The notes beneath the pieces are model-generated. The model did not search any database, was not told the DNA's origin, and was given only the letters and a program-made list of their open reading frames with translations. A DNA stretch of 64,000 nucleotides from Patescibacteria group bacterium (lineage in GTDB: Bacteria; Patescibacteriota; Saccharimonadia; UBA4664), in the NCBI GenBank assembly GCA_028288925.1, contig JAQGHG010000026.1, forward strand, positions 22,013 through 86,012, written 5' to 3'. The translations under genes and the position numbers were made by a program. Below are positions 6,719 to 33,802 of the stretch, piece after piece; position 1 is the first letter of the stretch; each line of letters starts with the position of its first letter.

Positions 6719-7696
6719 ATGCTGAGAGCTAGTCTAAAATTTGCCCGGCCGCGCATTATTATCACATGTTTTGCAATTGCTACGCTGGGCAGCGCCGCAG
6801 CGGGGCGGGTCACACCGGCCGTATTGTGGTGTTTCTTGCTCATCATCGCATTTATCATCCACGCTAATTCCATCAATGATTACACCGATCTCGAGATCGA
6901 CCGGGTGAACTTAAAAAACGCCAAGGACCGCCCCTTAGTAACTGGCGACATAACGATCCCGCAATTCTGGCTTGTTCACGGTCTAAGCGGAGGGGCAATG
7001 TTACTGTTGTCGGTTCCGTTTGGCTGGCGCGGGGTAGCAGCTTCGGCTGTTGTTGTGGTCATCGATTATTTGTATTCTCTACGGCCCATACGTGTCGCCG
7101 ACCGGCCATATGCTACGCCGCTGGCACTCGCGGGCACGTACGTATACTACTCATTCTCACTTGGGCTATGGTCGGCCCACACCCATGCTGCCTACCCTTG
7201 GATGCTATCCGTCGCGCTTTTCCTCGCGTTCTTGGCGAGACTTCTCCTTAAAGATTTTCGAGACAAAAAAGGTGACAAGCGTTACGGTAAGGAGACGTTC
7301 CTGCTGCGTCACGGTTCTACGACGACCTGCGTAGTCAGCGGTCTGTTATGGGTCTGCGCGGTCGGAAGCACTTTTCTAGCCCGCGCGCCCTGGCCAACCA
7401 TCGTGGTTCTTATTGTTGGTACAGTCATGGTTGGCCTTTGGCTCAAGCGATTATCTGGCCTAGCGGATGTCCAAGATCAACAACGGATGGTAACTGCCAT
7501 AGCCAACGCCGCCAATATCGCCATCGTCGCGCTCCTCGTGGGCTATGTGTGTCGCGATATAGGGGCATCACAGCTTGCGTCAAGCGTCAGTGTGCTTGTG
7601 ATTGGAGCAGGGGCACTCGGATACAATTGGTTTCGCACTAGACACATTACTCAAGCCAGGCGGCCGGTTGATCATAGCCGGGTGCCCTCTACGTGA
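6719..7696 (+). CDS. UbiA-family prenyltransferase (membrane)
   Basis: NSINDYTDLEIDRVN (NDxxDxxxD Asp-rich motif), a second Asp/Lys-rich loop KDFRDKKGDKRYG, about 8 TM helices. Confidence 0.7.
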   Translation: MLRASLKFARPRIIITCFAIATLGSAAAGRVTPAVLWCFLLIIAFIIHANSINDYTDLEIDRVNLKNAKDRPLVTGDITIPQFWLVHGLSGGAMLLLSVPFGWRGVAASAVVVVIDYLYSLRPIRVADRPYATPLALAGTYVYYSFSLGLWSAHTHAAYPWMLSVALFLAFLARLLLKDFRDKKGDKRYGKETFLLRHGSTTTCVVSGLLWVCAVGSTFLARAPWPTIVVLIVGTVMVGLWLKRLSGLADVQDQQRMVTAIANAANIAIVALLVGYVCRDIGASQLASSVSVLVIGAGALGYNWFRTRHITQARRPVDHSRVPST

Positions 7697-20845: not shown

Positions 20846-21583
20846 TTAAGGCCGCTCAAAGCGGCGAAAACCCTCGGTCAGCACTACTTGGCCACTCTTG
20901 TGAACCATCATGGCCTCGCATCCTTGGCTATGTAAAAACGCCAGGCCTGGCCGCCCCATACAAAACGCCGCTGTAGCCAGCGCGTCGACACGGTCGATCG
21001 TCGCGCCAACTACCGTCAGGCTCACCGGGTCGCCGACCATCCGGCCGGTGCGGGGATTATAAATATGCTCGCCCCGCTCGGCGGTCCCCGAAGTAGCCAC
21101 CGCGGCGTTCTTGAGATAGAGCAGCTTGGCCAGCTTACCCGGCTCGAACGGATTCGCGACCCCAATCGCCCAAGGGCCTCCGTCGGGGCCGTCACCGCTC
21201 ATCTGCATATCGCCGCCCGCGTTGATGCAGTAGCGCGTGATATACCGGCGGTCGAGCAGCCGTGCCGCCTGGTAGACCGCCCAGCCCTTCACGTATCCTG
21301 AAGGGTCGGTGTGGCCGTCCCATACCATATCGAAGCAACCATCCGTCAGCTTCTTTAAGCTCTCGCATTCATCCAAAACCTCCCGGACCTCTTCGCGGAC
21401 CTGGGATCGTTTGAGCTCGCCCCGGTTGAAACGGCTTATTTCGCTGTTCGGCTTGTAAGTGCTAAAGACCGCATCAACGTGGTGAAAATACGCGAAAACC
21501 TCATCAATAGCCTCGTCCAAAGCATTGGCGCCAAATGCCTCAACGGTGATTGGCATACCCATAATAATCCGCGTAGCTTTCAT
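20846..21583 (-). CDS. apbE: FAD:protein FMN transferase (ApbE family), copy 1
   Basis: N-terminal MKATRIIMGMPITVEA, ApbE-like core (DPSGYVKGWA, ATSGTAERG). ORF-track start at 21637 is probably too long. Confidence 0.75.
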   Translation of the reverse strand: MKATRIIMGMPITVEAFGANALDEAIDEVFAYFHHVDAVFSTYKPNSEISRFNRGELKRSQVREEVREVLDECESLKKLTDGCFDMVWDGHTDPSGYVKGWAVYQAARLLDRRYITRYCINAGGDMQMSGDGPDGGPWAIGVANPFEPGKLAKLLYLKNAAVATSGTAERGEHIYNPRTGRMVGDPVSLTVVGATIDRVDALATAAFCMGRPGLAFLHSQGCEAMMVHKSGQVVLTEGFRRFERP

Positions 21584-21607
21584 AACCCTATATTGTACAA
21601 TAATCAT

Positions 21608-23182
21608 ATGCAAGAAACGCCCCTGGAAGTAGCACAAAGGCTCCTCGCGGAAGGAAGAACCACCGATGAGATTAGAGTCGCACTCGGCGGCTCTGCCCCA
21701 ATCGCACCTCCGGCGCCAGAAACAGCTGCTCCGCCACCTCCTCCACCGGCCTCGGTTTCGTCGTCCCCGGCCATGTCCGCGCCAGCTCCTACTCCTGCTA
21801 CGCCACTGCCTCCTCCTCCTCCCGTGCCCGTGGCCTACCCTCAGCTTTTGAGCGCCAGGAGGCCAATACTGGCGATTCCGAAGCTTGGGTGGCCACTTAT
21901 TGCCATTATCTGCCTCATCCCATCCCTCGTTCTGTGCGTCGATGTGCCAATAGCCAACCGGTTTGGCGATATTCCGAGCGCGCTCTTGACCTTCGGAGAC
22001 ATCACAGGCGTAATCGGGCTGGCTACGTATGTCCTAAATCTCGTACTGGCGACCCGCCTACGCTGGCTGGAAGACTTGTTCGGTGGCCTCAACCGGGTGT
22101 TCGTAGCCCACCAGATCCTTGGAGGGTTGTCGCTCGTTACGCTGCTCATCCACCCCATGTTCTCGGCGGCTTCATACTACCCTTACGGCATCCGGGTGAT
22201 GTCGCATTTCTTCATTCCTCAGGTCGCCTATATAGGAACGGCCTTCGGCATAGTGGCGCTCACTATGATCATAGTGCTGCTCGTGCTTAGCTTCTACGTT
22301 AAGATCGGGTATAAGGTTTGGCTGCAAACGCACAAATACCTTGGTCTGGCCTACCTTCTGATAGGTTTGCATATACTTCTCACGCCCAACCGTATCACCG
22401 CCGACCCTTTCATAACCGGGTATCTCTGGGTCCTATTTCTAGCTGGCTTGGTCTCGTTTATATACCGGACACTACTGCCCAACATCTTCGTACGGAGCTA
22501 CCTGTACACCATTTCTTTGGCCGAGCGAAAAGGCGTTGGGGCGGTTGAAGTTACGCTAATTCCCGTCGACAAAATGATCCGCTTCAAAGCTGGCCAATTC
22601 ATCTTTATTGCCTTTGGCAGCGACGGCATATCGAGCGAATGGCATCCTTTCAGTATCTCTTCGGCCGAAACTTCTGGAAGGCTCATGATTGATGTGAAGT
22701 CGATGGGCGGATACACGGAGACTCTCACGCGTCTGCTTCCTCACATGATTGGTATGACAGCTCGCGTGGAGGGGGCTTATGGAAGGTTCTCGTATCGCAA
22801 CTTCGGCAACCTTAACCAGGTCTGGATAGCCGGCGGGATCGGAATCACGCCATTCTTGAGCATGGCTCAGACTCTCGGCACCGGGCCGTATAATGTCGAT
22901 CTCTACTATTCGGTAAAAACCAAGAGCGAGCTGATCGACCTCGATACGCTGGCGGTGCACCAATCGAACAACCCGGGACAGGTCTTCCGCGTGTTTCCCT
23001 TCGTGACGGACGCCTACAATACGTTCCTAAATGCTGAGATCATCGCGAGCAATAGCGGAGACCTCACTAAGCGCGATTTCCTCTTGTGCGGCCCACCGCC
23101 CATGATGCAATCAATAAAGAAACAGCTCATGACGATGGGTGTTAAAGCGAGTCAGATTCACACCGAAGAATTCTCACTCTAA
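21608..23182 (+). CDS. Ferric-reductase/NOX-type membrane flavocytochrome (FRD TM domain + FAD-binding + NAD(P)H-binding), Pro-rich N-terminus
   Basis: TM His pairs (AHQILGG, LIHPMF, THKYLG, GLHILL), HPFS FAD motif, GGIGITPF NAD(P)H motif. ORF-track start at 21479 would overlap ApbE. Met at 21608 preferred. Confidence 0.7.
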   Translation: MQETPLEVAQRLLAEGRTTDEIRVALGGSAPIAPPAPETAAPPPPPPASVSSSPAMSAPAPTPATPLPPPPPVPVAYPQLLSARRPILAIPKLGWPLIAIICLIPSLVLCVDVPIANRFGDIPSALLTFGDITGVIGLATYVLNLVLATRLRWLEDLFGGLNRVFVAHQILGGLSLVTLLIHPMFSAASYYPYGIRVMSHFFIPQVAYIGTAFGIVALTMIIVLLVLSFYVKIGYKVWLQTHKYLGLAYLLIGLHILLTPNRITADPFITGYLWVLFLAGLVSFIYRTLLPNIFVRSYLYTISLAERKGVGAVEVTLIPVDKMIRFKAGQFIFIAFGSDGISSEWHPFSISSAETSGRLMIDVKSMGGYTETLTRLLPHMIGMTARVEGAYGRFSYRNFGNLNQVWIAGGIGITPFLSMAQTLGTGPYNVDLYYSVKTKSELIDLDTLAVHQSNNPGQVFRVFPFVTDAYNTFLNAEIIASNSGDLTKRDFLLCGPPPMMQSIKKQLMTMGVKASQIHTEEFSL

Positions 23183-23217: not shown

Positions 23218-23895
23218 TTATAGGATTCCTCCCGGAACTAAGAAATTTAAAATCGCGTACATCATTAAGAACAATACCAACCCCGTAATAGCATTCACGA
23301 TCCGGTTTTTAGCCGACTTAATAGCTGCTGGATCACCTATCGAAGTAATATATTGAATCCCCGCTACCACTAGCATAAGCATAATGACTCCACCTACAGC
23401 GCCGGCCAATAGCGTCAGAACCATTTTCAAATAAGCAACGATCGCTCCACCCGATCCAGGGGTATTATCTACGCAGCCCTTGCCCGCTTGGATTGGTAGC
23501 GCAATCTTTATAGTGCCCGTCGGGCATGTACTCGCGGCGGGCTTGGTAGGGTCTCCAATAACGACAGGAGCGGGCTTAGCCGCCGGTGCCGGCGCCGGCA
23601 CGGGTGCCGGCTTAGGCGCTGGAACCGGCTTGGGCTTGGGTTTGGGGGGCGGAGGTTTGGCCGTGCTTGCACTCACAATATCTACCGGACCAGCAACCAC
23701 TCCGATTGCTTCATACAGCAATTCACCGGCCAGTCCGCGCGCTGCATGGATGATGCCGGACCCATTATAAACCGCCGACGTCGTGATATTAGCTGGACGA
23801 GCAGACAGTTCATACCCCAGGGACAAGTAGCGTACCAACTCAAGTAACCCAATAATGGCCAAAGCCGTAGCGGTATTATGGGCAGCTTTCTTCAT
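23218..23895 (-). CDS. Small membrane protein with PKPKPxPAP linker and TrbC/VirB2-pilin-like C-terminal two-helix core
   Basis: N-terminal signal/TM, Pro/Lys/Ala repeat linker, C-terminal pair of hydrophobic helices as in T4SS pilins. Confidence 0.35.
   Translation of the reverse strand: MKKAAHNTATALAIIGLLELVRYLSLGYELSARPANITTSAVYNGSGIIHAARGLAGELLYEAIGVVAGPVDIVSASTAKPPPPKPKPKPVPAPKPAPVPAPAPAAKPAPVVIGDPTKPAASTCPTGTIKIALPIQAGKGCVDNTPGSGGAIVAYLKMVLTLLAGAVGGVIMLMLVVAGIQYITSIGDPAAIKSAKNRIVNAITGLVLFLMMYAILNFLVPGGIL
23560..23650. repeat. Coding low-complexity repeat (GGCGCCGG/GGCTTGGG units) encoding PKPKPKPVPAPKPAPVPAP linker
   Basis: Read directly. Confidence 0.5.
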
Positions 23896-23982: not shown

Positions 23983-24738
23983 ATGAGGATGATACACGAC
24001 ACTAGATCCATAATGGGGATGCCCATTACTATTACTCTTGCATCCGGGGGCGACGCCAAGCTGCTAGATGAAGCTTTTGCCATCTTTACTGCCGTTGACC
24101 TGCGTTTTAGCACCTACAAACCCGACAGCGAGATCAGCCAGATTAATGCCGGCCGGCTTAAACCCCGGGGCTATAGTTCGCAGATGCGGGAAGTTCTGGC
24201 TAAATGCGCCGCTGCCAAGCAGGCTACCCATGGCTATTTCGACATCGAACACAACGGGCGCCTGGATCCCTCCGGTCTTGTCAAAGGCTGGTCGATTCAA
24301 AAAGTCGCCGACTTCTTAACCAGCCAGCACATACGCGACTTCTACGTAGACGCCGGTGGCGATATTGTAGCCGCGGGTCACAACTCCCAAGATGAACCTT
24401 GGTCCGTTGGGATCCGTCATCCCGAGCACCGGGACAAGAACGTAAAAATCCTATATCTTTCCGATCTCGCCGTCGCCACCTCGGGGACGTCCGAGCGCGG
24501 CGAACATATCTATAACCCACACTCACCTGATACACCCACCGGGCTCTTAAGCCTCACTGTTGTCGGCCCCACCATCGAAACAGCCGATGTGCTCGCCACC
24601 ACCGCTTTTGCCATGGGGGCAAAAACCGGTCTGAACTTTATCTCAGCTCAACCAGGCTATGAAGCCTTTGCCATTACAGGCAGCCTGTCCGCGATCTCTA
24701 CGAATGGCTTCGCTCGTTACCAGAGTAAGCCGGTTTGA
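23983..24738 (+). CDS. apbE: FAD:protein FMN transferase (ApbE family), copy 2
   Basis: IMGMPITI start, DPSGLVKGWS, ATSGTSERGEHIYNP. Paralog of 20846-21583. Confidence 0.75.
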   Translation: MRMIHDTRSIMGMPITITLASGGDAKLLDEAFAIFTAVDLRFSTYKPDSEISQINAGRLKPRGYSSQMREVLAKCAAAKQATHGYFDIEHNGRLDPSGLVKGWSIQKVADFLTSQHIRDFYVDAGGDIVAAGHNSQDEPWSVGIRHPEHRDKNVKILYLSDLAVATSGTSERGEHIYNPHSPDTPTGLLSLTVVGPTIETADVLATTAFAMGAKTGLNFISAQPGYEAFAITGSLSAISTNGFARYQSKPV

Positions 24739-28110: not shown

Positions 28111-28560
28111 ATGAAAAAGTTAATCTTGGCGGCCTTTGTAGTCGCGACATTCATTATCTACAGCGTCCACCAACACCAGGACGGCTCCGCGGCCGTGGTG
28201 GCGCCGGCGCGTACAAGTACCACTCCGACGCCTGCTTCATCGCCCGCCCCGGGGTCCACGCCTGCGGCGGCCATCGCCTATAAAGACGGCCGGTACACGG
28301 GAGACGCGGCGGATGCCGTATACGGCAATATCCAGGTGGCGGCTACCATCCAAAATGGCAAAATTACCGACGTGGAGTTTCTGCAGTATCCCAACGACCG
28401 CAATACGTCGGTGCGTATCAACACCCAGGCCATGCCGTATCTCAAGCAAGAAGCGATTTCAGTGCAAAGCGGCCACGTCGATATCGTCTCAGGCGCCACC
28501 GATTCGAGCCAGGCTTTCATCCAGTCGCTGAGCTCCGCCCTAGCCAAAGCGCAGTCGTAG
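28111..28560 (+). CDS. FMN-binding-domain (FMN_bind) extracytoplasmic protein, predicted ApbE substrate
   Basis: Signal/anchor MKKLILAAFVVATFIIYSV. Flavinylation motif DIVSGATDS (Thr at nt 28498-28500). Confidence 0.75.
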   Translation: MKKLILAAFVVATFIIYSVHQHQDGSAAVVAPARTSTTPTPASSPAPGSTPAAAIAYKDGRYTGDAADAVYGNIQVAATIQNGKITDVEFLQYPNDRNTSVRINTQAMPYLKQEAISVQSGHVDIVSGATDSSQAFIQSLSSALAKAQS

Positions 28561-30071
28561 TGAATATCGTCGACCTGCTGCTCGACCGCGTCACCATGTA
28601 CCGCCTGATGCTGTACTACCTGCTCGCGTTGCTGGGCGCCGCAATGCTCCTAGGCGCTGTGGGGTACGCGGCGTACAACCCGGTGGCCGTCACGCTGTCG
28701 GCTGGGTACCTTACTCTAGTATGCTGGGCCGCGAACAAGGCATTTGCCTACATTCTGAAAGTGCCGGTAAACCCGGAGTCGTCGCTCATCACCGCTCTCA
28801 TCCTGGCTCTCATCATCACGCCGCCGACTCACCTCCAGGGCTACATATTCCTGACGGCCGCCGCTGGTTTGGCGATCGCGTCCAAGTATTTGCTAACCAT
28901 TCGCAATCATAATATCTTCAACCCGGCCGCCATCGCGGTCGCTTTAACGTCGCTCGGCGCCGGCGAATCCGCTAGCTGGTGGGTGGGCAGCGCCGTACTC
29001 TTGCCCTTCGTGATAGTTGGCGGGGTACTGGTGGCGCGCAAAATCCGCCGTGGCCAGCTGGTGGCGAGTTTTCTGGTGGTTTCATTGGTGATGGTGGCCG
29101 TCATCGCCGCGATGAGCGGCGGCAACGTTGCCGTTACGCTCCAGAAGATGCTCCTCAACTCTTCGCTATTCTTCTTTTCCTTCGTGATGCTCACCGAGCC
29201 CCTCACCGCGCCCACTACCCTGGTCAAGCAGCGATGGTATGGCGCCTTGGCCGGGCTGCTCTTCCCTCCGCAGATACACATCCTGAGCCTCTATTCCACG
29301 CCGGAGCTGGTGCTGGTCGTGAGCAATCTGGCTTCGTACCTAATGGAGCGAAAATCCCGGCTCGTGTTGCGTCTTTCTAACATCCAAAAGACCGGCCCCA
29401 ACCTTGCCGACTTCATCTTTACCCCAAGCCACAAACCAGCGTATCTTCCCGGTCAATACATGGAGTGGACGCTACCGCATGCCAAGCCCGACGATCGCGG
29501 CAGCCGCCGGTACTTCACCCTAGCATCCTCGCCCACCGAAGATAATCTCCGGATTGGAGTAAAGTTCTATCCCAAAGGCAGCAGCTACAAACAAGCCTTA
29601 CTAAAGCTTGATGCCGGTACGGCGGTAGCGGCCGGCCAGCTCGGCGGCGACTTCGTGCTGCCCAAGGATCCGGCCGAGAAGCTCGCCTTCATCGCCGGCG
29701 GCATTGGCGTCACACCATACCGGAGCATGATGAAATACCTGCTCGACACACGTCAGGAGCGTGACATCACGCTCCTGTACGCGGCCCACACCAGCGGCGA
29801 GCTGGCCTACACCGATGTCTTCGCGGCCGCCCGGCAACAATTTGGCGCAAACGTAGTCTACGTACTCGACGCCCCCGGCACCTTATCCGAAGCCGCCCGC
29901 CAGGGACCCATCACCACGGCCCTCATAAAGGCCGAAATACCGGACTTCCGAGAACGCGTTTTCTTCGTCTCCGGCCCCCGCCCCATGGTGACGGCTACGG
30001 TAGCCGCGCTCAAAACCATAGGGGTCCACGCTAGCCGTATCAAGACTGATTTCTTCCCTGGATACGCCTAG
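28560..30071 (+). CDS. Membrane oxidoreductase: NqrB/RnfD-like TM domain (HNIFNPA) fused to FAD/NAD(P)H-binding ferredoxin-reductase-type module
   Basis: RNHNIFNPAAIA motif as in NqrB/RnfD. C-terminal RRYFTLASSP (FAD RxY[ST]) and GGIGVTPY (NAD(P)H). Confidence 0.6.
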   Translation: MNIVDLLLDRVTMYRLMLYYLLALLGAAMLLGAVGYAAYNPVAVTLSAGYLTLVCWAANKAFAYILKVPVNPESSLITALILALIITPPTHLQGYIFLTAAAGLAIASKYLLTIRNHNIFNPAAIAVALTSLGAGESASWWVGSAVLLPFVIVGGVLVARKIRRGQLVASFLVVSLVMVAVIAAMSGGNVAVTLQKMLLNSSLFFFSFVMLTEPLTAPTTLVKQRWYGALAGLLFPPQIHILSLYSTPELVLVVSNLASYLMERKSRLVLRLSNIQKTGPNLADFIFTPSHKPAYLPGQYMEWTLPHAKPDDRGSRRYFTLASSPTEDNLRIGVKFYPKGSSYKQALLKLDAGTAVAAGQLGGDFVLPKDPAEKLAFIAGGIGVTPYRSMMKYLLDTRQERDITLLYAAHTSGELAYTDVFAAARQQFGANVVYVLDAPGTLSEAARQGPITTALIKAEIPDFRERVFFVSGPRPMVTATVAALKTIGVHASRIKTDFFPGYA

Positions 30072-30305: not shown

Positions 30306-30590
30306 CTATTGCTCCTTATTCAGGTAAAATTCCAGATACCGCGCCGCGCCCTTGATAGCCACCGGCGATGCCTGCACAAATTGCTGCTTGCCCTGCCGGC
30401 GCTTGATGACGAGCTTAGCCTTCTCCAAAATCTTGAGATGCTTCGACACCGCCGCCAGCGACAAGTTGTACGGCTGGGCGATTTCGCTAACCGAAAGCTC
30501 CACACCGGCCACGCGGCGCAGAATGTCACGACGGGTCGGGTCGGCCAACGACCCAAAGATGGAATCAAGCTGTAATGAATATTCAATCAT
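30306..30590 (-). CDS. ArsR/SmtB-family HTH transcriptional regulator
   Basis: LADPTRRDILRRV...SVSEIAQPYNLSLAAVSKHLKILEKAKLV. Confidence 0.75.
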   Translation of the reverse strand: MIEYSLQLDSIFGSLADPTRRDILRRVAGVELSVSEIAQPYNLSLAAVSKHLKILEKAKLVIKRRQGKQQFVQASPVAIKGAARYLEFYLNKEQ

Positions 30591-30623: not shown

Positions 30624-33029
30624 TCAAATATTATCCAAGATTTCGGCTAAATCAACACCCCTACCCATCACCGGCTTCCACAAATCGCCAACCTCAGCCA
30701 CCCGCTTGGCCATATTCTTAATCGTAAACTGGCCCGGGTCGAGCTTCGGCGTCACCTCGTCCCAGCGCAGGGGAGCGGAGACGGTGGCATCGGGCATCGG
30801 CCGCGCACTGTACGGCGCCGCCAAGGTTTGGCCTTCGCGGTTCTGCAGGAAGTCCACATAAATCTTGTGCGGGCGCTTGGCCGGCATGCGCTCAACACTG
30901 GTGAGCTTGGGCTGGCGTTTATGAACTTCCACCGCCAGCAAATGTGCGAAATCCTTGGCCTGGTCGTGCGTGTACTTGGCCCCCAGCGGAATATAAATAT
31001 GAATACCCGTCTTGCCCGACGTCTTGGGATAGCACGGCACCTTCCAATCGTCGCACACCTGCTGCACGGTCAGCGCCACCGTCACCACATCCTGGAATGT
31101 CACGCCTTCCGGGTCCAGATCGATCACCGCCCAATCCGGCCTATCTAAGTGTCGCACGCGGGAGTTCCACGGATTAATCTCGATACTCCCGAGCTGCACG
31201 GCATACAGCAGCGTCTCCAGCGTGCCGCCCACCATCCAGTGCAGCGTCTCACCCGTAGAATCGGAATAAATATCCACCGCCGGCGCCCAATCGGGCAAAT
31301 GCTCCATATTTTTCTGGAAAAATCCTTTGTCACCCACGCCGCCGGGCTGGCGCAGCAGCGAGAGGGGACGGTCTTTGAGGTAGGGCAGTATGTACGGCGC
31401 CATCGTCCGGTAATACTCGATCAGATCGCCTTTGGTGTAGCCGTGCTTAGGGAAGAATACTTTGTCGAGATGGGTGAATGTTGGGGTCACAATAGTCTCC
31501 TTGGCGATTTCGCGATGAACATCTCGCGGGTCTTTGTCGGCGCGCAAGCCTTCGTACACCGGATGGCGCATCGAGCCGTCGGAAGTCCACTCGGCGAAGC
31601 TCATCTCGGCCACCACCTCCGGCCGCGTCCAATGCACCGGCGCGTTGGGACGGGGCTCTTCGCGGAAGGGCGAAGTTTTGCGCTCCAGCTTCTCCAGCCG
31701 GTCGCGCAAGGTTCGCCGCTGCTCGTCCGCAATCCCGCCGCCCGAGTGGCCCACGTACACCAGCTCGTCGCCCTCATACGCGCCGAGCAGCAGCGAGCCG
31801 AGGTACTCGCGCCCGCCGCGCGGTTCGGTAAACCCGCCGATCACCACCTCTTGGCGCAGGTGAGTTTTGGCCTTGAGCCAATCGTTGCCGCGGCGGTCTT
31901 CGCGGTACGGGCTGTCGGCGCGCTTGGCCACCACGCCCTCCAGGCCCTGCGCGCGCATACGCTCAAACAGCGCCTCGCCCTCGGTGGCGATGTGGTCGCT
32001 GTAGCGGATCGGGCCATCGGCCGGTACCAGTGCGGCCAGTAGCTGCTTGCGTTCGTGCAGCGGCATGCTCCGCAGATCGCGGCCGTCGCACCACAGCAGG
32101 TCAAACACGTAGTAGGCCAGCACCCCCCGCGGATTTTGCCGCCACTGCTGCAGCCACTCGAAGTGCGGCCGGCCGGCCTCATCGAGCACCACGATCTCGC
32201 CGTCCACGACCACGTCGTGCCCAAACGCCTGCAACGCCTCGTGCACCGGCGGGTAATGCGTGCTGAAATCCTGGCCGGTGCGCGAGTACAGCCGCGTCTG
32301 GCTGCCGTGCTTGCTAGCGACCGCCCGGTAGCCGTCCCACTTGATCTCAAACAGCCAGCCCTCGCGCTCAAACGGCTGCTCCACCAACGTACACAGCATG
32401 GGATTGACCCGCCACGGCTCAGGCCGCTCCGGGTACGCCGAAAGATCCGGCAGCTTGTTGTGCGCGCCTAGCTCATCGACCTTTTTGCCGCTGCGCACCG
32501 ACCCGTCCTGCTCGGTCACGCTCGCCTTGGTGGCGTATTCGTCACCTTTCTTTACCAGTAGCCAGGCCTTATCGTCCGGCCCGTGCATCTTGATGAGCGC
32601 GAACTCGCCCCGCAGCTTTGTACCGTGCAGAATAAACGTGACATGCCCCTCGGCCAACCCCTTGCGCAGCTCCGCCGCCGGATCATCACTCGCCTGGCGG
32701 GGTTCATACGTCCCCTCGTCCCAAATAATTACATTCCCTGCGCCATAGCTCCCCTCCGGAATTACACCCTCAAACTTCCGGTACTCGTAGGGGTGATCCT
32801 CCGTCATCACGGCCAAATGCCGGTCCTGCGGATTCATCGACGGCCCCTTGGGCACCGCCCAGCTCTTGAGTACGCCGTCCAGCTCCAGCCGGAAGTCATA
32901 ATGCAGGCTCGAAGCGTGATGCTCCTGCACCACAAACGCCAACGGCCCCTTGCCGGAGCGCTTTACCTGGCCCTTCGGTTCGGGCGTGCGGTCAAACTGC
33001 CGCTTGGCGTGATAATGCTCCAGGCTCAT
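30624..33029 (-). CDS. ligD: Multidomain ATP-dependent DNA ligase D (phosphoesterase - ligase - polymerase/primase)
   Basis: N-terminal KRQFDRTPEP phosphoesterase motif, ligase KxDG (EIKWDGYR), C-terminal LigD-Pol domain. 801 aa. Confidence 0.85.
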   Translation of the reverse strand: MSLEHYHAKRQFDRTPEPKGQVKRSGKGPLAFVVQEHHASSLHYDFRLELDGVLKSWAVPKGPSMNPQDRHLAVMTEDHPYEYRKFEGVIPEGSYGAGNVIIWDEGTYEPRQASDDPAAELRKGLAEGHVTFILHGTKLRGEFALIKMHGPDDKAWLLVKKGDEYATKASVTEQDGSVRSGKKVDELGAHNKLPDLSAYPERPEPWRVNPMLCTLVEQPFEREGWLFEIKWDGYRAVASKHGSQTRLYSRTGQDFSTHYPPVHEALQAFGHDVVVDGEIVVLDEAGRPHFEWLQQWRQNPRGVLAYYVFDLLWCDGRDLRSMPLHERKQLLAALVPADGPIRYSDHIATEGEALFERMRAQGLEGVVAKRADSPYREDRRGNDWLKAKTHLRQEVVIGGFTEPRGGREYLGSLLLGAYEGDELVYVGHSGGGIADEQRRTLRDRLEKLERKTSPFREEPRPNAPVHWTRPEVVAEMSFAEWTSDGSMRHPVYEGLRADKDPRDVHREIAKETIVTPTFTHLDKVFFPKHGYTKGDLIEYYRTMAPYILPYLKDRPLSLLRQPGGVGDKGFFQKNMEHLPDWAPAVDIYSDSTGETLHWMVGGTLETLLYAVQLGSIEINPWNSRVRHLDRPDWAVIDLDPEGVTFQDVVTVALTVQQVCDDWKVPCYPKTSGKTGIHIYIPLGAKYTHDQAKDFAHLLAVEVHKRQPKLTSVERMPAKRPHKIYVDFLQNREGQTLAAPYSARPMPDATVSAPLRWDEVTPKLDPGQFTIKNMAKRVAEVGDLWKPVMGRGVDLAEILDNI

Positions 33030-33031
33030 GG

Positions 33032-33802
33032 CTACTCCTTGGCGAGGCTAGCTTTGAGCGCGCTCATCAGATCGTCGGCCGTAGCCTGCGGTTCATGCTT
33101 GTGCTTCTTTGCCACCGGCTTCTCACCCTTAATCTTAGCCTTGATGCGCTCCTCTAGCTCCTGTGCATACACATCGGCGAAATCCTCAGGCATGAATGGC
33201 TTCGTCTCTTGCTTGATCAGCTTGAGCGCCACTTCCAGCTCGCGGTCAGTTACCTGTTTGTCGGTCGGTACGCCCAGATCGCTGCCGGACCGTAAATCGC
33301 TCGGATACCGCATTTGCTCCAGCACCAGCAAGCGCCCCACCGGCTTAATCACCGCCAAATGCTCGCGTTCGTGCATCACGTATTTGGCCAGCGCCAGCAT
33401 GGCCGATTTCTTCAACGCCTCGCGCAGCAAAGCGTAGGCCTTTTCGCCACCCTTCACCGGCTCCAAATAATACGGCTTATCGAAGTAGCGGATGTCGATA
33501 TCACCTTCTTTCACGAACTGCTGGATATCCACCGTCGAAGACTTTTCGGCTGCCAATTCATCAAGCTGCTCGGGCGTAAACACTACGTATTTATCGTCCT
33601 CATACTCATAGCCCTTCACGATATCGTCCCAATCCACCTCTTTGCCCTCGTCGCGGCAAATGTGCGCGTACCGGATAGGGGAGTGGTCGTCCTTGTGCAG
33701 CATGTGGAACTCAATACCCTCACGAGTCTCCACGGCGCTAAACATCCGCACCGGGATGTTCACCAAGCCAAAACTAATCGAGCCGTTCCATATTGGTCGC
33801 AT
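33032..33802 (-). CDS. ku: Ku protein (NHEJ DNA-end binding)
   Basis: MRPIWNGSISFGLVNIPVRMFSA N-terminus typical of bacterial Ku. 3-nt gap to ligD. Confidence 0.85.
   Translation of the reverse strand: MRPIWNGSISFGLVNIPVRMFSAVETREGIEFHMLHKDDHSPIRYAHICRDEGKEVDWDDIVKGYEYEDDKYVVFTPEQLDELAAEKSSTVDIQQFVKEGDIDIRYFDKPYYLEPVKGGEKAYALLREALKKSAMLALAKYVMHEREHLAVIKPVGRLLVLEQMRYPSDLRSGSDLGVPTDKQVTDRELEVALKLIKQETKPFMPEDFADVYAQELEERIKAKIKGEKPVAKKHKHEPQATADDLMSALKASLAKE

Follow-up and report, generated by a model that had tools for sequence, protein, structure and literature searches.

A Patescibacteria genome, probably of the Saccharibacteria, encodes a membrane-bound oxidoreductase directly behind a small FMN_bind protein, and the question is whether this pair is an NQR/RNF-type electron-transfer system reduced to two genes. 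We analysed a stretch of 64,000 nucleotides of this genome (GenBank assembly GCA_028288925.1, contig JAQGHG010000026.1, positions 22,013 to 86,012), which is termed the window throughout and to which coordinates refer unless another locus is named. The oxidoreductase gene (28560..30071, + strand, 503 amino acids) fuses an NqrB/RnfD-like membrane domain to a ferredoxin-NADP reductase (FNR)-type module for flavin adenine dinucleotide (FAD) and reduced nicotinamide adenine dinucleotide (phosphate), NAD(P)H. Together with the FMN_bind subunit the fusion protein probably constitutes an NQR/RNF-like flavinylation-associated transmembrane electron-transfer system. An earlier note on this DNA had described the pair as a two-gene mini-NQR/RNF analogue; this is correct but not new, as such pairs are already known as the NQR/RNF-like system (PMC8238504, PMC11334425).

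The fusion protein and its FMN_bind partner

The fusion gene begins with GTG (28560-28562); conservation of residues 1-12 (MNxxDxxLDRxT) across 44 homologues supports this start. The protein is 100% identical to the NCBI entry "MAG: oxidoreductase [Patescibacteria group bacterium]". Every motif that the earlier note gives for the open reading frame (ORF) 28560-30071 occurs in the sequence, namely the FNPA-containing segment RNHNIFNPAAIA (residues 115-126), RRYFTLASSP (316-325) and GGIGVTPY (380-387). The AlphaFold2 model of the full-length protein reached a mean predicted local distance difference test score (pLDDT) of 86 and a predicted template modelling score (pTM) of 0.81.

The membrane domain comprises residues 1-262 (28560..29345). 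Pfam family PF03116 (NQR2_RnfD_RnfE) matches residues 142-234 with 40.1 bits, compared to a curated cut-off of 27.7, and a profile built from 16 N-terminal domains has a single PDB sequence match, the Azotobacter RnfD (8ahx_D, E 4.5e-4). Alignment of the N-terminal-domain profile with E. coli RsxD by hhalign placed residues 69-239 on RsxD 68-311 (E 2e-6, probability 89%) with three motifs in common. The FNPA motif (residues 120-123, 28917..28928) is aligned with FNPA 121-124 of RsxD, starting at 120 versus 121, and LTEP (residues 211-214, 29190..29201) is aligned with the LTDP of RsxD, whose TDP lies at residue 288. All 45 family members have F120, N121, P122 and A124; L211, E213 and P214 of the LTEP segment are likewise invariant in the family alignment, the acidic residue being kept as Glu. 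The domain also shows the NqrB/RnfD fold, which is polytopic and related to that of Amt/urea transporters. Profile, alignment and fold thus bear out the NqrB/RnfD-like character of the N-terminal domain that had been proposed.

In the same hhalign alignment the query has a gap of approximately 72 residues facing RsxD 146-217, the outer loop with SQAT and Thr187. An [ST]GA[TS] motif was found in the first 265 residues of none of the 45 family members. Since the outer loop is deleted and the motif is missing, the membrane domain cannot carry the covalent flavin mononucleotide (FMN) of NqrB/RnfD. The domain had been noted before to have no SGAT of its own; it is the whole loop bearing the RnfD threonine that is gone.

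FNR modules are often joined to ferric-reductase or NOX-type membrane domains, a protein of this type is encoded 5 kb upstream (21479..23182), and Foldseek aligns the full-length model loosely to NOX and DUOX. A bis-haem N-terminal domain with a fortuitous FNPA was considered. The NOX and DUOX alignments run through the reductase module, and the Foldseek search with the full-length model is dominated by matches to the reductase half. PF01794, the six-helix domain with two haem-ligating His pairs, has no match on the fusion ORF, and no ferric-reductase fold was seen. The alignment to ferric-reductase transmembrane profiles that the earlier note had named as counter-evidence thus did not appear. 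Together with the RsxD alignment and the NqrB/RnfD fold, these results rule out a bis-haem domain almost completely.

The C-terminal module (residues ~268-503, 29361..30068) consists of an FAD beta-barrel and an NAD(P)H-binding part and ends with FFPGYA. It contains the FAD motif R-Y-F-T (317-320) and the NAD(P)H motif GGIGVTP (380-386); R317, T320, G380, G381, G383 and P386 are invariant in the family alignment. PF00175 matches with E 8.5e-12 (46.1 bits, cut-off 22), and PF00970 matches weakly. In NCBIfam this half partially matches three reductase modules, those of flavohaemoprotein, BenC and NqrF, the PDB sequence matches agree on an FNR-type FAD/NAD(P)H module, and Foldseek found flavohaemoglobin, GcoB and the FAD domain of NqrF with E values of approximately 1e-14 to 1e-15. 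The proposed fusion to a ferredoxin-reductase-type module is confirmed by all four approaches.

The FMN_bind subunit (28111..28560, +, 149 amino acids; PF04205, E 2.4e-9) is NqrC/RnfG-like, with weak NCBIfam matches to PplA and RnfG. Its N-terminus (residues ~1-22) is predicted to form an N-in signal-anchor helix, from which a linker of about 30-50 residues rich in Pro, Thr, Ser and Ala (median 48 amino acids in orthologues) leads to the FMN-binding domain. Residues 1-22 are its single hydrophobic segment, and this MKK-hydrophobic anchor was called from hydropathy and charge bias. Lys and Arg are in excess on the N side of the anchor compared to its C side in 55 of 70 FMN_bind orthologues, which predicts an N-in, C-out orientation. 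The flavinylation motif SGAT (residues 127-130, 28489..28500) was read from the sequence in the context DIVSGATD and agrees with the consensus D-x-x-[ST]-G-A-[TS] (D124-I-V-S-G-A-T130). SGATD is invariant in four aligned orthologues, and 77 of the 80 FMN_bind ORFs of related loci (see below) contain an [ST]GA[TS] motif. The flavin transferase ApbE is predicted to attach FMN covalently to Thr130. That the upstream gene encodes a flavinylatable partner thus agrees with the PF04205 match and the SGAT motif, and the partner is kept upstream of the fusion gene in 76 of 80 related loci. One detail has to be corrected: stop and start codon of the two genes were said to overlap by 4 nt, whereas the TAG of the FMN_bind gene (28558-28560) shares a single nucleotide with the GTG of the fusion gene. 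In the relatives a 4-nt overlap is found between the genes for ApbE and the fusion protein.

The NQR/RNF-like system and its proposed electron path

The system termed NQR/RNF-like was defined by Méheust et al. (2021; eLife, PMC8238504) as a PF03116-PF00175 fusion in a flavinylation-associated gene cluster, and here both domains are located on one 503-aa ORF. According to Huang et al. (2024; mSystems, PMC11334425) the system has only two subunits, and its membrane subunit is without the conserved flavinylated Thr; the gap of ~72 residues opposite the RsxD T187 loop agrees with this lost site as presented in their Figure 4F-G. The system has been reported chiefly from Actinobacteria and the candidate phyla radiation (CPR; PMC8238504, PMC11334425). 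For Ktedonobacter racemifer an AlphaFold-Multimer model shows an intimate two-subunit complex with the FMN_bind subunit on the outer face, in which the covalent FMN of the partner is brought to the membrane domain's flavin site (PMC11334425). Architecture, missing site, two-subunit model and occurrence in CPR and Actinobacteria were therefore already published by one group, and nothing new follows from the locus alone.

The likely course of the electrons can be outlined from these parts. The FAD of the cytosolic FNR-type module would take electrons from NAD(P)H, and the NqrB/RnfD-like domain would carry them across the membrane, probably via a non-covalent flavin at a riboflavin-type site. They would then pass to the covalent FMN that ApbE would attach to Thr130 of the FMN_bind subunit, which has a predicted membrane anchor, and would leave this FMN for an acceptor outside the cytosol. 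In NqrB/RnfD a riboflavin on the cytoplasmic side and the covalent FMN on the outer side are approximately 8 Å apart and conduct electrons (PMC12174285), which provides a precedent for the transmembrane step. Because the loop for the covalent FMN of NqrB/RnfD is deleted here, we infer that the FMN_bind subunit would dock at the position of this FMN. Such a flavin-only, compact route from NAD(P)H across the membrane is of interest for CPR bacteria, which are poor in membrane redox enzymes.

No other RNF subunits were found that could add to the pair: in tblastn searches of the 64-kb window with E. coli proteins, RsxA, B, C, E and G have no homologues (best E 0.17) and only RsxD matches, at 29013-29261. 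In the related loci, too, FMN_bind, ApbE and the fusion gene are the sole genes of the system.

Relatives, ApbE and competing readings

At least 592 stretches in species-level genomes (one genome per species) encode a relative of the fusion protein, which makes the NQR/RNF-like family far larger than the 127 clusters of the first report. Counts out of 80 related loci refer to the best 80, in which the fusion proteins match over essentially their full length with 45-59% identity. These loci stem from Saccharibacteria, many other CPR lineages, Chloroflexota and Actinomycetota, and include the cultured Chloroflexota Dictyobacter aurantiacus and Ktedonospora formicarum. As the operon occurs in cultured Ktedonobacteria, the biochemistry of the system is open to testing. 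Many homologues with 55-73% identity have the same two Pfam domains and bear JGI/NCBI names that combine RnfD or NqrB with ferredoxin-NADP reductase. With the N-terminal domain as sole query, 294 clusters (50% identity) were found at E <= 1e-30; most of the best matches have 480-515 amino acids and thus agree with the fusion in length. Among the proteins closely related to the loop-less NqrB-like domain, some have just 260-350 amino acids; these could be gene fragments from short contigs, or forms in which the domain is unfused and the reductase is encoded separately.

The gene order FMN_bind-ApbE-fusion was found in 67 of the 80 loci. The remaining arrangements are FMN_bind-fusion (five loci), FMN_bind-FMN_bind-fusion (two), FMN_bind-FMN_bind-ApbE-fusion (one), FMN_bind-ApbE-FMN_bind-fusion (one), ApbE-fusion (two) and the fusion gene alone (two). 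Conservation of the two-gene unit, which had been suggested as a check, is thus evident, with FMN_bind upstream of the fusion gene in 76 of 80 loci, mostly with ApbE between them; ApbE is within the cluster in 71. The nearest relatives (73% and 67% identity) also have the FMN_bind-ApbE-fusion operon, which together with the 67 loci identifies the arrangement in the window as a rearranged minority form. The presumed enzyme for attachment of FMN to Thr130 is the ApbE flavin transferase encoded at 23983..24738 (+, 251 amino acids; PF02424, E 3.5e-45). Three genes on the opposite strand that are unrelated to the system lie between this gene and the pair; they encode a Cys-rich protein of 375 amino acids, a Pro-rich membrane protein of 351 amino acids and a Pro/Thr-rich protein of 373 amino acids with a CarboxypepD_reg-like domain.

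Apart from spurious antisense ORFs, the sole recurrent flanking gene in the related loci codes for an OmpR-type response regulator, which lies no more than 4 kb away in 26 of the 80 loci; in locus L088 (4946..7329) a histidine kinase comes after it. A riboflavin kinase (Flavokinase) is encoded a few kb from the operon in two relatives, and a VIT1 iron transporter upstream of it in a third (L001 11284..11733, L003 7932..8318, L005 3097..3804). In the window the response regulator is absent altogether, and none of the other genes lies beside the pair.

Several points weigh against the export of electrons by this pair. Literature searches found no experimental or biochemical characterisation of any member of the NQR/RNF-like system, and clustering of the flanking ORFs in the 80 related loci revealed no conserved acceptor gene beside the operon. 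In the window, ApbE is encoded 3.8 kb (four ORFs) upstream of the pair and thus outside the operon. Signal peptide, lipobox and membrane helix are also missing from the ApbEs linked to the system, both in the window and in almost all of 72 relatives, although the FMN_bind domain on which they would act is predicted to be outside the cytosol. For the Salmonella ApbE a periplasmic location is essential (PMC12052999).

The missing export signal is not a matter of a misplaced start. The 23983..24738 protein contains no hydrophobic segment, signal peptide or membrane helix and can be aligned from its first residues with the operon-encoded ApbEs of the relatives. A second ApbE gene in the window (20846..21637, -; PF02424, E 2e-44) is divergent from the NOX-type gene at 21479..23182 (+) and also encodes a leaderless protein. 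Both ORFs of the window and the operon ApbEs start at the conserved T..IMGMP of the fold. An N-terminal extension that escaped annotation was considered and rejected: the distance from the preceding in-frame stop to the start of the ApbE fold is at most 25 codons in 56 of the 72 relatives, and only one of the remaining 16 has a hydrophobic stretch in its upstream open frame. The leaderless ApbE and an FMN_bind domain on the outside can be reconciled in two ways: either FMN is attached prior to or in the course of export, or the topology is not that of the published model. In the searched text of both papers on the NQR/RNF-like system (PMC8238504, PMC11334425) the lack of a signal peptide of ApbE is not discussed, and as far as this text goes it is a consistent feature that the published model leaves unaddressed.

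A leaderless ApbE leaves room for a cytosol-facing variant as well as for other readings. In the cytosol-facing variant the FMN_bind domain would be cytosolic, would be flavinylated there by ApbE and would relay electrons from the FNR module to the NqrB-like domain, which would reduce a membrane acceptor, for example a quinone, at a site resembling that for ubiquinone in NqrB; the pair would then act as an NAD(P)H:quinone-type oxidoreductase and not as an electron exporter. This would fit the lack of export signals, seen both in the window and in almost all of the 72 loci, and the observation that the leaderless ApbEs known so far act on cytosolic targets (PMC12052999), and in NqrB a ubiquinone is bound beside the riboflavin (PMC12174285). 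The anchor of the FMN_bind subunit points the other way, since an MKK-hydrophobic N-in segment is followed by a Pro/Thr/Ser-rich linker and the N-in, C-out bias recurs in 55 of 70 orthologues. Moreover, the published AlphaFold-Multimer model has this subunit on the outer face, and it is the outer loop that the membrane domain has lost, so the vacancy is on the outer side. A UbiA-family prenyltransferase gene in the window (6719..7696, +; PF01040, E 9e-27) speaks for the variant and bears on whether the organism makes a quinone or another prenylated carrier able to accept electrons. To our knowledge, quinone biosynthesis is usually absent from CPR bacteria, which counts against it. Altogether, we consider an inward-facing FMN_bind domain unlikely.

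Marginally less probable still is a minimal redox-driven ion pump, in which the electron path would be the same as proposed above and the NqrB-like domain would have kept an ion pathway, so that NAD(P)H oxidation would drive Na+ or H+ export. That the acidic residue of LTDP is kept as the invariant Glu213 speaks for this reading. Coupling in NQR and RNF is, however, considered to depend on the NqrD/E (RnfA/E) switch and on movement of NqrC, the switch subunits are absent from the window, and the reading is drawn purely by analogy. In its most far-reaching form, which is just as doubtful, the pair would be a minimal relative of the NQR/RNF pumps, complete in itself, in bacteria whose genomes are very small; a retained NqrB-type channel with Glu213 would couple NAD(P)H-driven outward electron transfer to ion export and the flavin of the FMN_bind subunit would be installed by the leaderless cytosolic ApbE before or during export. 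If true, flavinylation by a cytosolic ApbE would be a route that is undescribed for an exported protein. Electron transfer from NAD(P)H across the membrane to the FMN_bind subunit is therefore the reading that we prefer.

Neighbouring genes and comparison with known systems

The NOX/ferric-reductase-type protein encoded 5 kb upstream (21479..23182, +) contains the bis-haem domain PF01794, FAD_binding_8 and NAD_binding_1. It has neither an FMN_bind domain nor an SGAT of its own, and a single FMN_bind gene was found in the window. The ORFs 21479..23182 and 20846..21637 overlap head-to-head by approximately 160 nt, which suggests that the true starts are probably M43 (MQETPLE...) for the former and MKATRIIMGMP for the latter. 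Between the NOX-like gene and the ApbE gene, an ORF on the opposite strand (23218..23895, -) has a C-terminal type IV secretion system pilin domain (PF18895, E 1e-8).

Directly downstream of the pair an ArsR-type helix-turn-helix (HTH) regulator is encoded (30306..30590, -). It is followed by genes for a LigD-like ATP-dependent DNA ligase/polymerase of 801 amino acids (30624..33029, -) and a Ku protein of 256 amino acids (33032..33802, -), both named from reading the translations. The putative LigD and Ku would make a non-homologous end-joining pair, which would be unexpected for a small-genome bacterium.

NOX/ferric-reductase-type and 'MsrQ-like' flavinylation-associated systems follow the same logic as the fusion protein, in which a cytosolic FNR module feeds a membrane domain that carries electrons outward. 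They use the bis-haem PF01794 domain for this step, whereas the domain found here has the flavin-type NqrB/RnfD fold. With the FNR-family reductases (the FAD/NADH domain of NqrF, flavohaemoglobin, BenC and GcoB) the fusion protein shares the two-domain module of FAD beta-barrel and NAD(P)H Rossmann fold as well as the R-x-[YF]-[ST] and GGxGxxP motifs. NqrF and BenC have a [2Fe-2S] ferredoxin domain, which the fusion protein lacks, and in contrast to NqrF, flavohaemoglobin, BenC and GcoB its module is joined to the C-terminal end of a polytopic membrane domain.

Canonical NqrB/RnfD proteins (7xk3_B, 8ahx_D and 7zc6_D) have the FNPA, NxES/DNS-LxT and LT(D/E)PxT motifs in common with the fusion protein, and the predicted topology with a cytosolic C-terminus is alike. 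The membrane domain studied here is, however, approximately 90-125 residues shorter, and the outer loop with the [ST]GA[TS]-type motif, on whose Thr NqrB and RnfD carry their covalent FMN, is gone. NqrB and RnfD are subunits of the six-gene complexes NqrA-F and RnfABCDGE; the fusion protein is outside any such complex and, unlike them, is joined directly to its electron-input module.

Closest is the published NQR/RNF-like system, with which the pair shares the fusion of the PF03116 domain to the PF00175 module, the FMN_bind partner homologous to NqrC/RnfG, here with a predicted membrane anchor, and an ApbE gene nearby. The usual order in this system is FMN_bind-ApbE-fusion, whereas in the window FMN_bind abuts the fusion gene and ApbE stands apart.

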